From: Escherichia virus TH22
Sequence record: MT446396.1
DNA: 64,000 bases
Strand: one strand, 5' to 3'
In this document: positions 9,747-54,461 of the stretch, one piece after another
How positions within the stretch are numbered: the first letter of the stretch is position 1
Layout of the letters: each line of letters opens with the position of its first letter
Notes under the pieces: generated by a model
Told to the model about the DNA's origin: nothing
Database searches by the model: none
The model's input: only the letters and a program-made list of their open reading frames with translations
Program-made: the position numbers and the translations under genes

Positions 9747-10106
9747 ATGGTAAGAGTCATAACTTTAGCCATAGGGTTAGTATTCAGCACGGGAGGAATA
9801 GCTTCAGTACAGAGCGATGACAATAATAGCATCATAGAATATGCAACGAGGACGGCCAAAGATTATTGCGCATCAAGCAATGTGGATTGTGTAATCCGGT
9901 TCAGTGCCAAGCTCACCGCGGCATATAAAGACGGTCAAAATGATGTTGAACACACTCTTATGAAAAAGAGCACTTTATCCAACAAATATGAAAAGAAACT
10001 ATTTGAAATGGATTGTATTCTGTCGAGTGCCAAATATAAAGCGGCCTGCACCAGTATGGTTGACAGGTTAGTCGATTCCTATAACAGAGGATTGAACTCT
10101 AAATGA
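9747..10106 (+). CDS. hypothetical secreted protein
   Basis: N-terminal signal-like segment MVRVITLAIGLVFSTGGIASV. Confidence 0.45.
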   Translation: MVRVITLAIGLVFSTGGIASVQSDDNNSIIEYATRTAKDYCASSNVDCVIRFSAKLTAAYKDGQNDVEHTLMKKSTLSNKYEKKLFEMDCILSSAKYKAACTSMVDRLVDSYNRGLNSK

Positions 10107-10567
10107 TTGTTAACTATATTAAGGGCGATATTGTCGCCCTTTTTCTCGAAGGAAACATCATAGCTCATGGCTGTAACTGCTTCCATACAATGGGTTCAGG
10201 CGTTGCTGGCCAACTGGCAAAGGCTTACCCAAAAATTTTAGAAATGGATAAGACAACAACTGAATACGGTTCCCGAGAAAAACTCGGTGATATGTCTATT
10301 GTTTTTAAACATAAGCCAACTGGATTTGGTATGTGCTATAACCTTTATACCCAGTATGAACCGGGTCCAAATCTGGATTATGGCGCTTTAGTAAATTGTA
10401 TGATAGAATTAAATCTACAAGCAGAAACCCTTTTGTTTAAACCGGTAATTTATATTCCCAGGATTGGCTGTGGTATTGCAGGTGGTGATTGGGATAAGGT
10501 TTCCCGGTTAATTGATATGTTTACTCCTGATATTGATTTGATAGTGGTGGATTATGAGTCAAACTAG
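10103..10567 (+). CDS. macro-domain protein (putative ADP-ribose binding/hydrolase)
   Basis: GDI...NIIAHGCNCFHTMGSGVAGQL and IPRIGCGIAGG follow the macro-domain motif pattern. Confidence 0.6.
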   Translation: MIVNYIKGDIVALFLEGNIIAHGCNCFHTMGSGVAGQLAKAYPKILEMDKTTTEYGSREKLGDMSIVFKHKPTGFGMCYNLYTQYEPGPNLDYGALVNCMIELNLQAETLLFKPVIYIPRIGCGIAGGDWDKVSRLIDMFTPDIDLIVVDYESN

Positions 10568-49433: not shown

Positions 49434-49628
49434 ATGAGAATTACAAGTTGGCTTAAAGATTGGTTGGTTACTCCAGGGATTGATGATTCCTGGGTGGCCA
49501 GAGCCGAGGAAGAAATGCAGCGCGAAGCCGAAGAATGGGCCGTTAACGGGCTTAAAGCCATGCAGGAAAAGAAGACCGAACGAGCAGCGCTTAAACTGAT
49601 GCGTGATATCTACGGAGATAAATCATGA
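49434..49628 (+). CDS. hypothetical protein
   Basis: Start immediately after upstream stop. Confidence 0.4.
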
Positions 49629-49774
49629 CACAAGAAGATGCTGAACGCCGAGCAAAAGAAGCACTGGATTTGCTTTTGAAAATTGGCAGTAAAATGATGG
49701 AAGAAAACGAAAAGTACATCAAGGAAAATAAAGTTCCTGATGGTCCATTAGTCGGTAAGAGGAAAACATTATGA
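49625..49774 (+). CDS. hypothetical small protein
   Basis: 49-aa ORF with ATGA overlaps both sides. Confidence 0.3.
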
Positions 49775-50253
49775 AAGTATATGAATTAGAATTCTATGTC
49801 CGTGATTCGGCAGGTCAAACACGACCTTACGATGCTACCGCATGCCTTATCATGGTTTACAATGGCATGGATTCGGTCACTGCATTGGAAACAAAATTAA
49901 TGAACTTGACGATGCCAGAAAACGTTATGCTGAAGGTATTTCATAGAAAAAACGTTGATGTTGCCGAAGGGTGTCCGTTTACTGTTTCTGAAGCTCTGCA
50001 CATCAAAGGCTATCGTCACCCAGACCTTTATGGCGAAGATACCATTTTCTATAAAGATAGAGATAAAATGGCCACTGAACGTCTTCAAGGTCGCACATAT
50101 CTGATTTCCACTACCGACGACCTTGCTGAAGTCGAACGTCAGATTTGGAAACACTTTGATATTGGTCTGCGCTTTACTTTAACAGAAGAAGCTCTGCACG
50201 ATACTAAAGTCCGAGCTCGTATGTATGGTTACGGCCCTATCGGTGGTTACTAA
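49771..50253 (+). CDS. hypothetical protein
   Basis: 160-aa ORF; in the T4 mrh/srh region by synteny, no sequence assignment. Confidence 0.45.
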
Positions 50254-50432
50254 TGGATTTATTTGAACTTTTTGAAGAGCCTAAAGCTCCTACGGAAGCC
50301 CGTGTGGACCTAGTTGACGAACTTGATGCGATTATACAGAAGCACGGTTTTAGCCTCCCAATGGAAGTTCTACGCGACCTGGCCTCATATTACGATGACC
50401 CACCTCCATGGGCACCATGGGTGAAACAATGA
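50253..50432 (+). CDS. hypothetical small protein
   Basis: 59-aa ORF with overlapping start/stop. Confidence 0.3.
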   Translation: MDLFELFEEPKAPTEARVDLVDELDAIIQKHGFSLPMEVLRDLASYYDDPPPWAPWVKQ

Positions 50433-50677
50433 ACTGGTTAACAAATATTCCCACATCGGCGCTGGATATCGACCGTAAACATGCTCATAAGGAAATCGAG
50501 CAACAAAAAATTAATCGTTTACAAAGGCTTAAGACTGAATCCGAGACAATTAAAGTCGAAACCCCGATAAAATCGAAAAGTTCTTACTCATCATATCAAT
50601 CTCCATCATACCAATCTCCGATTGGTATGGCCGTAGACATTGCAGTCTTTGGCGTTCCACTTGGAGTGTTTAAGTAG
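50429..50677 (+). CDS. hypothetical protein with Ser/Tyr-rich segment
   Basis: KSSYSSYQSPSYQSP followed by hydrophobic C-terminus. Confidence 0.4.
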   Translation: MNWLTNIPTSALDIDRKHAHKEIEQQKINRLQRLKTESETIKVETPIKSKSSYSSYQSPSYQSPIGMAVDIAVFGVPLGVFK

Positions 50678-50733
50678 TTTACTTACTCCCCTCCTAATGA
50701 CATAATGGTCTTTCTTACAACAGAGAGACCATT

Positions 50734-51294
50734 ATGAACATCATCAAATCTGATACCGAACCCAACCAGTTAAAATTTAGTGAAATGGAGATAGCTTCAT
50801 TATTTGAATGCCGTACATCAAAGGTTGATAAGACCTTGCATTCAAATGTCAACTCAATCATCAAGTCAAGGTTGTCTATACCCGATACAGTCTTGTGGCG
50901 CGGGGTAACCCAGCAAGAGATTGATTTGTTAGATGAAGCAAAAGAATCAATGCAACCTTTTGAATTTGGACGGATAACCTCCTTTACAGAAGACTATGGT
51001 ATTGCCAGGGATTTTGCTGCAATGGAATATGTGACTAGGACTATCGTCAGATTGAATCAGACCAAAGCTTTTTGTTACCATGATGCGATGCGCAAAATCG
51101 CACTTGATGTTCCACTTGAATTCTTCAATACAGCTTCTGGTTCCGCACGGGCAGCTACATTAAGGCGTGAAGAATACATGGACATGATTGATTCCGAGCT
51201 TGAATGGTTTGTTCCAGTTGACCAGAAATTCGTGGTAGTTGATGCTGGATTTATTGATGATTATTATGTTCTTGACTGTGTACAAGAGCAATAA
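50734..51294 (+). CDS. ADP-ribosyltransferase, ModA/ModB family
   Basis: R-S-E signature: LWRG, SFTEDYGIARDFA (STS-like), ELEWFVP (ExE-like). Confidence 0.55.
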   Translation: MNIIKSDTEPNQLKFSEMEIASLFECRTSKVDKTLHSNVNSIIKSRLSIPDTVLWRGVTQQEIDLLDEAKESMQPFEFGRITSFTEDYGIARDFAAMEYVTRTIVRLNQTKAFCYHDAMRKIALDVPLEFFNTASGSARAATLRREEYMDMIDSELEWFVPVDQKFVVVDAGFIDDYYVLDCVQEQ

Positions 51295-51338
51295 GACACG
51301 TTAAGATGTTCCTATCAACTACTGATGAGGATAATAAA

Positions 51339-51953
51339 ATGCTGTACACTGATGACGTTTTGAATGGAATTATTGACACTGCCGCTTCTAGTGAGTCTTT
51401 TCGTAACCAATGCCAAGCGGAGATTGATGCTCTTTATACAGATAATGAGCAATCAGTACTCTGGCAGTGTATGGAAAATAAACCTGACCTGATTCAAGAA
51501 GACTTGTCCAGGATTATCCGCAACAATCTGAATACTGCACCACCCCCGGCGTTGTTCCGTGGTATATCAAAGAAAACTATGGAATACCTGGAAGATTTAA
51601 GATATGTTGGTGCAACGATTGAATTCAATCGTGTAATGAGTTTTTCCAGGGACTGGCAGGTTGCAAGAAATTTCGCATCATACAGTTTCTATGGAACAAG
51701 GAATATTTTCTGCATAAACAATGCACCATATGCGTATAACTATCAGGAAGCAATCTTCAAAATGATTTGTGGTGCTCCTCCTGAAGAGTTCAATGGTGCA
51801 TATCCAGAAGCAACCAGGAAGTCAAACTTGCACCTGGTTAATGATGAAGATGAGTTTATGTTTCCCGCTGGGACTACGCTCCGCGTAGACTTGATTGAAA
51901 CACACCCATTGAATAACCTGTATACTGTTTGGCATTTGACTGTTTTGAACTAA
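51339..51953 (+). CDS. ADP-ribosyltransferase, ModA/ModB family
   Basis: LFRG, SFSRDWQVARNFA, EDEFMFP; paralog of upstream gene. Confidence 0.55.
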   Translation: MLYTDDVLNGIIDTAASSESFRNQCQAEIDALYTDNEQSVLWQCMENKPDLIQEDLSRIIRNNLNTAPPPALFRGISKKTMEYLEDLRYVGATIEFNRVMSFSRDWQVARNFASYSFYGTRNIFCINNAPYAYNYQEAIFKMICGAPPEEFNGAYPEATRKSNLHLVNDEDEFMFPAGTTLRVDLIETHPLNNLYTVWHLTVLN

Positions 51954-52088
51954 CCAAAGACCTTAGAACCATTATACACAGTAAAAATAAAAGCGTTAAA
52001 GGCGAAAAAGTGGTGTACATGAAAGATGAACGGTGTATAATAATTTCATACTGAGTTACCAAATCGTCCGTAAGATGAGAAAAATATC

Positions 52089-52835
52089 ATGACTTTATCA
52101 AAAACCAAAACGCTGAAAGTTAAACGTCGCCTGGAACACACTCAAGCTTCTGCTAAACGTCGTGGCAAGGACTTTAACCTGGATTTCAATTACCTGGTTA
52201 ACATTCTTGACCAAAAAGTTTGTGCTTATTCTGGTGAAACATTTAATAACTCTATTGAAGGTGAGAAGTTATCATTAGAGCGTTTTAACAATGACATTGG
52301 TTATATCAAAGGTAATGTTATTCCTGTTAAAAAGAAATACAACACCATGCGTTCTGATTGGTCCCTGGATGAGCTTAAACAACGTCGTGATGATGTTGCT
52401 GTAAAAATTGCTCGTCCATCTGTCAAGAAGATTGAAAAGTTAAATCTGACTGCAGAGAAATGGGAACAGATTAAAAAGTCATATACCCATATCAAGAACA
52501 TCCAACACAAACGTGAGAATCGCGTTAAGCATTATGCTCAAATGAGTAAATCAGAGCAGTCCAAAGAAAACCAATTAAAAATGGTTGCTCTGAAGGCTCG
52601 CATTGATGGTTCCCGTATTGCGGAAGGTCATGAGCTTACTAAATTGAACGTCTTGCTCAAAGGTAATGACTGGAAAGTTACCAAGAAATTAACTAATGCT
52701 GAAACGCTTTTTGATTGCTATGATAAAATCATTCAAGGTCTTGAGCGTTTTGAGAAGATTGGTTTTATTGGTAAATTAAAACTGAAACGTGGTCTGCCTT
52801 TGAACGCGTCAATTTTTAAACTGATTAGAGGTTAA
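52089..52835 (+). CDS. hypothetical protein with degenerate HNH-like motif (Srd position)
   Basis: CAYSGETF...LSLERFNNDIGYIKGNVIPVKKKYNTMRSD resembles an HNH pattern with Cys/His replaced. Confidence 0.45.
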   Translation: MTLSKTKTLKVKRRLEHTQASAKRRGKDFNLDFNYLVNILDQKVCAYSGETFNNSIEGEKLSLERFNNDIGYIKGNVIPVKKKYNTMRSDWSLDELKQRRDDVAVKIARPSVKKIEKLNLTAEKWEQIKKSYTHIKNIQHKRENRVKHYAQMSKSEQSKENQLKMVALKARIDGSRIAEGHELTKLNVLLKGNDWKVTKKLTNAETLFDCYDKIIQGLERFEKIGFIGKLKLKRGLPLNASIFKLIRG

Positions 52836-52839
52836 TGTG

Positions 52840-53136
52840 ATGTACTACGCATATGTGCTGGTCCACAAAGATAAAGATGGTTTTGAACACCCATTGGAGT
52901 ATGATGGAAAGGTTACCTTATACACCACAAAAGTGGGCGCAGAATATGAACTTGCCAACTATTCATATACTACAAGCCGCTATTTACGCATGGGACGTAT
53001 TGAAACAGTATGCACACCTAGAAAATGGTGGTTTGATAAGTGGGAAACAAAAACTGTTTTTCCTACTGAAGAACACGCACGAGAATTGAAATTAATTTTA
53101 GATACTTTATATGTTAAGCGAGTAAAATTGGCATGA
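52840..53136 (+). CDS. hypothetical protein
   Basis: ATG 52840 (track start GTG 52837); directly upstream of dda. Confidence 0.4.
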   Translation: MYYAYVLVHKDKDGFEHPLEYDGKVTLYTTKVGAEYELANYSYTTSRYLRMGRIETVCTPRKWWFDKWETKTVFPTEEHARELKLILDTLYVKRVKLA

Positions 53137-54461
53137 TTAAATTTGAAGACTTGAACACAGGACAAAAAGAAGCTTTTGATTATATTACTGAAGCTATTCA
53201 GCGACGTTCAGGGGAATGTATCACTCTGAATGGTCCAGCTGGCACAGGTAAGACCACTCTGACAAAATTTGTCATTGACCACTTAGTGCGTAATGGAGTT
53301 ATGGGAATTGTGCTTGCTGCACCAACTCACCAGGCGAAAAAAGTTTTATCTAAATTGTCTGGTCAAACAGCGAATACAATCCATAGTATCTTGAAGATTA
53401 ACCCAACGACATATGAAGACCAAAACGTTTTTGAACAGCGCGAAATGCCTGACATGTCAAAATGCAATGTTCTGGTTTGTGATGAAGCAAGTATGTATGA
53501 CGGGTCTCTGTTTAAGATTATTCTTAACTCTGTTCCTGAATGGTGCACTATTCTTGGAATTGGTGATATGCACCAGCTGCAGCCAGTTGACCCGGGAAGC
53601 ACACAGCAAAAGATAAGCCCGTTCTTTACGCATCCTAAGTTCAAACAGATTCATCTGACTGAGGTCATGCGAAGCAATGCTCCTATCATTGAAGTGGCGA
53701 CAGAAATTCGCAATGGCGGCTGGTTCCGTGACTGTATGTATGAAGGTCATGGCGTGCAAGGTTTCACCTCACAAACCGCTTTAAAGGATTTCATGGTAAA
53801 CTATTTCAGTATTGTAAAAGATGCTGATATGTTGATGGAAAACAGGATGTATGCATACACGAATAAATCAGTTGAAAAACTGAACAATATTATTCGTCGC
53901 AAGCTCTATGAAACGGATAAAGCATTTTTACCGTATGAAGTCCTGGTTATGCAAGAGCCGCACATGAAAGAGCTGGAATTTGAAGGTAAGAAATTCAGCG
54001 AAACCATTTTTAATAATGGTCAGTTGGTTCGCATCAAGGATTGCAAATACACTTCCACTATTCTCCGCTGTAAAGGCGAATCGCACCAGTTAGTGATTAA
54101 TTACTGGGACCTGGAAGTTGAGTCAATTGATGAAGATGAAGAATATCAGGTTGACCGCATCAAAGTTTTACCAGAAGACCAGCAACCAAAATTCCAGGCA
54201 TATCTGGCGAAAGTTGCTGACACATACAAACAGATGAAAGCCGCTGGTAAACGTCCAGAGTGGAAAGACTTCTGGAAAGCGCGCAGGACCTTCTTGAAAG
54301 TCCGTGCTCTTCCGGTCAGTACAATCCACAAGGCCCAAGGCGTTTCAGTGGACAAAGCATTCATCTATACTCCATGCATCCATATGGCCGAAGCTTCATT
54401 AGCGAGCCAGTTGGCTTATGTTGGAATCACACGAGCGAGGTACGACGCATATTATGTATAA
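53133..54461 (+). CDS. dda: DNA helicase Dda (SF1B)
   Basis: Walker A GPAGTGKTT, LAAPTHQAKKVLSKLSG, C-terminal YVGITRARYD; matches T4 Dda. Confidence 0.95.
   Translation: MIKFEDLNTGQKEAFDYITEAIQRRSGECITLNGPAGTGKTTLTKFVIDHLVRNGVMGIVLAAPTHQAKKVLSKLSGQTANTIHSILKINPTTYEDQNVFEQREMPDMSKCNVLVCDEASMYDGSLFKIILNSVPEWCTILGIGDMHQLQPVDPGSTQQKISPFFTHPKFKQIHLTEVMRSNAPIIEVATEIRNGGWFRDCMYEGHGVQGFTSQTALKDFMVNYFSIVKDADMLMENRMYAYTNKSVEKLNNIIRRKLYETDKAFLPYEVLVMQEPHMKELEFEGKKFSETIFNNGQLVRIKDCKYTSTILRCKGESHQLVINYWDLEVESIDEDEEYQVDRIKVLPEDQQPKFQAYLAKVADTYKQMKAAGKRPEWKDFWKARRTFLKVRALPVSTIHKAQGVSVDKAFIYTPCIHMAEASLASQLAYVGITRARYDAYYV

Follow-up and report, generated by a model that had tools for sequence, protein, structure and literature searches.

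The closest described relatives of the two proteins considered here are the ADP-ribosyltransferases ModA (NP_049635) and ModB (NP_049636) of bacteriophage T4. [quoted passage not shown] ModB is an Arg-specific mono-ADP-ribosyltransferase whose targets are S1, EF-Tu and trigger factor, and it is also an RNAylating enzyme that attaches RNA from NAD-capped RNA. Both T4 enzymes are early proteins (PMC9697503). R-S-EXE is the accepted motif of these Arg-specific transferases, mutation of R73 abolishes ModB activity, and the determinants for the use of NAD-capped RNA are unknown even for T4 (PMC10468400). The Mod enzymes are toxic to E. coli, and polymerase that has been modified by ModA is less active on early promoters (PMC2988021; PMC3014915).

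Here we analyse the corresponding locus, at positions 50734-51953 of a 64,000-nucleotide stretch of DNA from Escherichia virus TH22 (MT446396.1), referred to below as the window. A preliminary description of this DNA had proposed that the locus encodes tandem ModA/ModB-like transferases with an R-S-E signature, and that a macro-domain protein encoded elsewhere in the window might be an eraser of their modifications.

Results

The mod locus and its source genome

At the nucleotide level, bases 50000-53200 match two Escherichia phages, UPEC07 (MW250787) and TH55, with 100% identity, while the identity to VR7, VR20, VR25, VR26 and SP18 is 90-95%. All of these phages belong to the genus Gaprivervirus of the Tevenvirinae, and in their GenBank records both genes carry a modA/modB ADP-ribosylase annotation. 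Comparison with the modA/modB genes of VR7, VR20 and UPEC07 in particular showed no substantive difference, with equal coding sequences, the same ADP-ribosylase annotation and a nucleotide identity of either 100% (UPEC07, TH55) or 92-95%.

The gene order is T4-like and runs soc, mrh.2, mrh.1, srh, modA.4, modA.3, modA.2, the two mod genes, srd, dda.1 and dda, with one small extra ORF between modA.2 and the mod pair in this phage. This places the pair in the early cluster, with modA.2 on one side and srd/dda on the other. The downstream neighbour that anchors the synteny of the locus is a srd homologue of 248 aa (52089..52835, plus strand), which matches PHROG 1400 'Srd anti-sigma factor' with an E value of 1e-98 and lies in the same order as in T4, VR7 and JS98. 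Across 50734-51953 the opposite strand holds no ORF longer than 62 aa. The 50-52 kb bin has a low GC skew, which was considered as a sign of foreign origin and rejected, as its source is the genes upstream of mod and not mod itself.

We are highly confident that the phage is a Gaprivervirus, a T4-type coliphage similar to VR7, and that 50734-51953 is its mod locus, encoding two paralogous early Mod-family enzymes. Such a pair of mod genes is ordinary for a T4-type phage, and the present pair is already known, because identical public phage genomes already annotate both genes. Gene identification alone adds nothing here: the sequence is deposited and annotated, and T4 has equal writer genes together with a macro gene.

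Both genes encode Mod-family ADP-ribosyltransferases

The first gene, ORF1 (50734..51294, plus strand), encodes a protein of 186 aa and stands in the position of T4 modB, while the second, ORF2 (51339..51953, plus strand), encodes a protein of 204 aa and stands in the position of T4 modA. Both were assigned from the list of open reading frames, PHROG, alignment with the T4 proteins and AF2 models. In T4 modB overlaps modA by 4 nt, whereas here the genes are separated by a 44-nt spacer in which ORF2 has its own Shine-Dalgarno sequence. The start of ORF2 is likely to be ATG 51339, because GAGGA lies 7 nt upstream, homologues from other genera begin MLY... and the GenBank start is identical. If translation began at the in-frame ATG further upstream, at 51306, the protein would have 215 aa (51306-51953), and this ATG is without a Shine-Dalgarno site comparable to the GAGGA of ATG 51339.

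Profile searches place both proteins in PHROG 832, 'RNA polymerase ADP-ribosylase' (E 6.6e-28 for ORF1 and 2.3e-38 for ORF2). The Pfam family Mod_ADP_RT (PF26816) is recorded on the homologues P0001 (94% identical) and P0008 (98% identical), as well as on both mod genes of a related metagenomic phage locus (L016). A search of NCBIfam, and a search of a Pfam-A copy without the PF26816 model, returned no significant family for ORF1 or ORF2, the matches to DRAT, Sld5 and FTR all being sub-threshold. As the copy that was searched lacks PF26816, the null Pfam-A result is not evidence against the Mod assignment.

The motifs quoted in the preliminary description, L(W/F)RG, SF(T/S)... and E-x-E..., are all present as stated, and far beyond chance. 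They read LWRG (residues 54-57), SFTEDYGIARDFA (83-95) and ELEWFVP (155-161) in ORF1, and LFRG (72-75), SFSRDWQVARNFA (101-113) and EDEFMFP (170-176) in ORF2 by its 204-aa numbering. When the proteins were aligned with T4 ModA and ModB, the check that had been suggested for them, the catalytic Glu proved to be conserved: ORF1 R56/S83/E155/E157 and ORF2 R74/S101/E170/E172 align with ModB R73/S99/E171/E173 and ModA R72/S96/E163/E165. The codons of these candidate catalytic residues lie at 50899-50901 (R56), 50980-50982 (S83), 51196-51198 (E155) and 51202-51204 (E157) in ORF1, and at 51558-51560 (R74), 51639-51641 (S101), 51846-51848 (E170) and 51852-51854 (E172) in ORF2. In family alignments of 15 and 20 sequences, R, G, S and E-x-E are invariant.

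Word-indexed homologue searches recovered only 2 and 18 proteins, and the alignments available for structure prediction were in consequence shallow (20 sequences). The resulting AF2 models have a pLDDT of 88 for ORF1, of which the first 11 residues are poorly modelled, and of 92 for ORF2. In both models R sits on the first strand and S on the second, with E-x-E immediately ahead of a later strand. In Foldseek comparisons the predicted models gave a probability of 1.00 to C3, iota Ia, CDTa, HopU1, Vip2 and Tre1 with a TM of about 0.5, and a TM of 0.75-0.84 to predicted structures of phage Mod proteins. ORF1 was matched to HopU1, C3 and iota Ia, and ORF2 to C3, CDTa, Certhrax and Tre1. The predicted fold of both proteins is that of a C3/iota/HopU1-type transferase; in the models, the fold class and the placement of R, S and (Q/E)-x-E are those of C3bot, iota Ia, CDTa, Vip2, HopU1 and Tre1. 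The C3-like and binary toxins differ in their low sequence identity to the ORFs (8-15%), in the modest TM given above and in the N-terminal helical region that is specific to Mod. Sequence searches of the PDB gave no match for ORF1 or ORF2, and a profile of the Mod family gave a single weak match there (E 0.057), to the ExE region of XopAI.

By sequence, then, ORF1 and ORF2 are Mod-family ADP-ribosyltransferases, and the earlier proposal of tandem ModA/ModB-like R-S-E transferases is borne out by PHROG 832, the aligned motifs, the fold and the synteny.

The features of ORF1 raise the question of whether one copy, most plausibly ORF1, could be a pseudo-enzyme without catalytic activity or a duplicate in decay. 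It is short, sits on a long branch and is without the N-terminal helix, the N-terminal 20 or so residues of most relatives being missing. However, all 12 family-invariant residues are retained in ORF1 (R56, G57, R80, S83, F84, F94, Y99, P127, R145, E155, E157 and P161), the reading frame is unbroken, with 94-95% conservation within the genus, and its fold model is confident. The invariant residues are also retained by an ORF1 homologue, 63% identical, in another phage. We therefore consider a dead copy very improbable and treat both proteins as active-looking enzymes.

Neither gene can be equated with T4 modA or modB

The GenBank labels follow gene position, with ORF1 named 'ModB' and ORF2 named 'ModA'. 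Taken as statements of orthology, they would assign translation factors and RNA attachment to ORF1, and Arg265 of RNA polymerase alpha to ORF2. The order of the two genes does equal that of modB then modA in T4, and the annotations of VR7 and UPEC07 agree with it. Against this, ModB outscores ModA for both ORFs in BLASTP, with 79 bits against 53 for ORF1 and 94 against 69 for ORF2, and the best T4 place in tblastn is modB for ORF1 and ORF2 alike.

Phylogenetic analysis of 69 sequences speaks against positional orthology as well. The tree contains five subfamilies, each with 72-100% support and with a mutual order supported at no more than 21%. T4 ModA and T4 ModB stand for two of them, and a third is the ORF1 lineage. 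In the fourth, the ORF2 lineage is joined by the second-position genes of Dhakavirus and Mosigvirus, whose first-position genes make up the fifth. Both the T4 ModA clade (100%, with the homologues P0054 and P0034) and the T4 ModB clade (100%) exclude ORF1 and ORF2, and ORF1 does not group with the first-position Dhakavirus/Mosigvirus genes in our trees. Based on these results, it is quite unlikely that the positional labels reflect orthology.

If similarity rather than position is taken as the guide, ORF2 would be the functional equivalent of ModB, as the ancestral and widely conserved copy, and ORF1 an additional copy that evolves fast and whose target is new or ModA-like. The identity of ORF2 falls smoothly across genera, from 65% in Dhakavirus and 55% in Mosigvirus to 35-39% where a genus has one mod gene only; for T4 modB it is 37%. 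In a neighbour-joining tree of 17 sequences, ORF2 forms a clade of 100% support together with T4 ModB and all but one of the five single-copy Mods sampled, and ORF1, T4 ModA and the remaining single-copy Mod, that of PKO111, lie outside it. The identity of ORF1, by comparison, is at least 90% within 33 Gaprivervirus records and no more than 32% in isolate genomes outside this genus, and the stretch IIKSRL...LWRGV is common to ORF1 and T4 ModA. This scheme is weakened by the larger analysis, as the fully supported clade of ORF2 and ModB is gone from the 69-sequence tree (support of 13% or less), and either tree may be misled by long branches. We regard a ModB-like ORF2 beside a divergent ORF1 as possible, if somewhat doubtful.

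The wider distribution of the family is uneven. A single mod gene occupies the locus in five genera (Gelderlandvirus, Jiaodavirus, Kanagawavirus, Winklervirus and Marfavirus), and some phages carry a third mod paralogue, of 161 aa, elsewhere in the genome. An exhaustive HMMER search of 1.84 billion representative proteins found only 39 Mod-family members, three of which are nearer relatives of ORF1 (64%, 40% and 41% identity); among the same proteins the ORF1 lineage amounts to four clusters at 50% identity. Net charge and pI did not separate ModA-like from ModB-like proteins, all of which are acidic, and a PADLOC search with ORF1 gave one chance-level match only.

T4 ModB has the family, the R-S-ExE motif, a similar size and the modA.2-srd locus in common with the proteins described here, and is their best T4 match (31% identity for ORF1 and 37% for ORF2, at the bit scores given above). 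It is set apart by this low identity and by its own clade. T4 ModA likewise shares the family, motif and locus with both ORFs; it differs in its weaker match and its separate clade, and has SAS where ORF1 and ORF2 have SF(T/S). Both the 69-sequence tree and the BLASTP scores speak against a one-to-one orthologue of ModA among the two ORFs, and taking both T4 enzymes together, neither ORF is demonstrable by sequence as a one-to-one orthologue of ModA or ModB. ORF1 is, by the same comparisons, a member of a small separate lineage. With no such orthology demonstrable, the T4 targets are not transferable gene for gene. The safe statement is that the phage has two active-looking Mod enzymes whose targets are not readable from T4.

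A candidate early promoter and a predicted start-site hairpin precede ORF1

Consensus and pattern scans located a T4-type early promoter-like site directly upstream of ORF1 (50677..50706, plus strand). It consists of GTTTAC in the -35 region (50677-50682), an 18-nt spacer and a TG-preceded CATAAT as the -10 box (50701-50706). The GTTTAC and the TG of the mod promoter are invariant in an alignment of 10 phage genera. Matches to the promoter consensus are not enriched in the region, where 9 were found and 10.7 expected, and as a consensus match the site is best described as a candidate early promoter.

A further observation concerns the RNA of this region. A promoter-embedded hairpin lies ahead of the first mod gene and is conserved across genera. 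It is a predicted RNA hairpin of 15 bp (50701..50736, plus strand), supported by folding, shuffles and a cross-genus alignment, whose 5' arm takes in the -10 box and the next 9 nt and whose 3' arm consists of the Shine-Dalgarno-like bases GAGAG, a spacer and the ORF1 AUG. Its dG is -21.6 kcal/mol (z -6.3), and none of 200 shuffles was equally stable. An equivalent layout was found in 11 loci covering every genus sampled, where it precedes the first or only mod gene: apart from the present phage, these are T4 (modB), VR7, JS98, a Mosigvirus, STP4-a, a Winklervirus, a Kanagawavirus, a Marfavirus, a Jiaodavirus and a metagenomic relative. In a small alignment of 10 sequences, from which the structure was itself derived, 89.9% of cells are paired in the 12-bp consensus helix, compared with 34-59% in slid controls. 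The same alignment, again as the source of the structure, contains 13 compensatory double-change cells, a number reached by 0 of 500 shuffles. The window holds six GTTTAC-type promoters, and a strong hairpin from -10 box to AUG occurs only at mod, the others having values of -0.6 to -4.5 kcal/mol. Rfam returned no family for the hairpin, with a chance match to bantam at E 0.96.

Hairpins of related design are known from T4 genes e, soc, 49 and I-TevI, in which an upstream arm containing the promoter base-pairs with the Shine-Dalgarno sequence and the AUG; only promoter-proximal transcripts should be open (PMC3014915). The promoter embedded in the mod hairpin differs from those of the e/soc/49/I-TevI type in being an early, sigma-70-type promoter rather than a late one. 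The PeSL cassettes of RB49 and phi1 resemble it in another way, in that the stem and the -10 box of an early promoter frequently overlap (PMC2839356). A role as a terminator, as proposed for PeSLs, seems unlikely for the mod hairpin because it is not followed by a U-tract. T4 modB is absent from the examples of sequestering hairpins in a 2010 review (PMC3014915), the older T4 literature lying outside this comparison.

The position of the hairpin suggests how it might operate. Transcription from the mod promoter is expected to begin near 50712-50717 and would yield RNAs that are without the 5' arm and hence translatable, while in read-through transcripts from upstream the ORF1 start site would be occluded. 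Speculatively, a brief, promoter-gated pulse of Mod synthesis would make sense.

The macro-domain protein resembles an anti-DarT2 factor

The macro-domain ORF noted in the preliminary description is real. It encodes a protein of 154 aa (10103..10567, plus strand) that matches Pfam Macro at E 4.4e-8, with 33.5 bits against a cut-off of 22. From this match, its T4 identity and its neighbours, we assign it as an orthologue of T4 Tk.4/AdfM: the two proteins are of equal length and 59% identical, and the gene order vs.1, vs, tk.4, tk.3-tk.1, tk is as in T4. A role like that of AdfM in the present phage is suggested by sequence comparison. The only NCBIfam and PADLOC matches of the protein are to DarG, a DNA ADP-ribosyl glycohydrolase antitoxin.

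It had been proposed that this protein and the mod pair might form a writer/eraser system, in which the macro protein would reverse the ADP-ribosylation made by the Mod enzymes. The genome that carries the mod pair does encode a genuine macro domain, and some macrodomains hydrolyse protein ADP-ribose, with TARG1 and Poa1p among the solved relatives of this protein. However, Arg-linked ADP-ribose is removed by hydrolases of the ARH1/DraG type and not by macrodomains, and cleavage of the N-glycosidic bond of Arg-ADP-ribose is not known for macrodomains. The macro gene also lies 40 kb from mod in a different gene cluster, and is not part of the mod unit. The orthology to AdfM and the DarG-like profile point elsewhere, as a 2025 preprint reported that escape from the DNA-modifying DarTG2 depends on one T4 gene alone, tk.4, which it named adfM, and proposed that AdfM acts by removal of ADP-ribose from DNA (bioRxiv 10.1101/2025.11.20.689424). 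The eraser part of the earlier proposal is thus not supported, and we judge it highly improbable that the macro protein acts on Mod-made modifications; its orthologue is reported to be a DNA-acting anti-DarT2 factor in T4. Nor is the combination of a mod pair and a macro gene special to this phage, because T4 carries all three genes.

Discussion

The analysis places two intact members of the Mod family in the early region of a Gaprivervirus. Both enzymes are predicted to be active and, from the E-x-E motif, Arg-specific, and they are probably expressed early, with expression likely to start from the early promoter directly upstream of ORF1. Each enzyme would most likely transfer ADP-ribose from NAD+ onto arginines of host proteins. 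Within minutes of the onset of infection, such modification would help the phage to take over the machinery of transcription and translation.

With regard to the family as a whole, we tentatively raise a broader reading, which we consider rather unlikely in its entirety. The Mod family may consist of rapidly diversifying lineages instead of a fixed ModA/ModB pair, and the ORF1 lineage may act on a target outside the T4 set, for example a defence protein; Alt is reportedly active against the defence protein Mokosh. The same reading would have the hairpin at the -10 box limit translation to transcripts from the gene's own promoter, giving a brief and self-limiting pulse of enzyme.

Two points are of more general use. 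ModA and ModB labels in T4-like genomes are set by position or best hit and do not track demonstrable orthology, and claims that a given phage 'ADP-ribosylates RNA polymerase alpha' or that it 'RNAylates ribosomes' are not to be carried over from T4. The hairpin ahead of the first mod gene, for its part, offers a cheap and testable case of what may be promoter-dependent translational gating of a toxic early enzyme.

Leader hairpin of the first mod gene

Within 50677-50736, the early promoter of the mod genes overlaps a hairpin that joins its -10 box to the translation start region of the first mod gene, both AUG and Shine-Dalgarno sequence being paired. This structure comprises 15 bp, with a predicted stability of -21.6 kcal/mol. 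The window contains six GTTTAC promoters, and the other five lack a -10-to-AUG hairpin of this kind. A hairpin of the same design is found in the T4 modB leader (L003) and at the comparison loci L002, L006, L007, L008, L010, L012, L013, L014 and L016, and it is conserved with compensatory changes over 10 genera. Promoter choice probably gates translation of the first mod gene through this leader hairpin.

Neighboring genes and their annotation

Upstream, the 'modA.3' gene (49771-50253) encodes an Mrh paralogue (Pfam T4_MRH, E 2e-43), and the related metagenomic locus L016 has two tandem genes of this type. Homologues of the phage genes modA.2, modA.3 and modA.4 are labeled 'molybdenum ABC transporter' in the UPEC07 record (L001; equivalent to 49625-50432). 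Likewise, in T4 RefSeq (L003, L005) mobD.4 is labeled 'molybdopterin-guanine dinucleotide biosynthesis protein MobD' and dexA.2 'dextranase'. All of these labels are public annotation artefacts that arise from gene-name collisions.

A 41-aa ORF with a TTG start (51929-52054) overlaps the end of the second mod gene; UPEC07 lists it as a hypothetical protein, VR7 does not annotate it, and the call is probably spurious. Upstream of srd lies a promoter-like site (TGTACA, 16 nt, TATAAT; 52014-52041). The Srd homologue itself (52089-52835; Srd family, E 1e-98) also matches the PHROG endonuclease, HNH endonuclease and endonuclease VII families over its N-terminal ~100-160 residues (E 8.5e-20 to 3.7e-8). 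These matches are a hint that its fold derives from a nuclease.

Some T4-type phages carry a third, shorter Mod-like paralogue (161 aa) with the R-S-ExE motif at another genomic site, as in Tequatrovirus CJY920 (L009, 3022-3507) and Citrobacter phage Moon (L011, 2519-3004); the 64,000-nt window lacks it.

The macro-domain protein

The preliminary description proposed the macro-domain protein (10103-10567) as a potential eraser of ADP-ribosylation. Its T4 orthologue (59% identity) is Tk.4/AdfM, recently reported as an anti-DarTG2 factor. Because the protein is DarG-like by profile comparison, its likely substrate is DNA; it would most likely remove ADP-ribose from phage DNA, and not from proteins.
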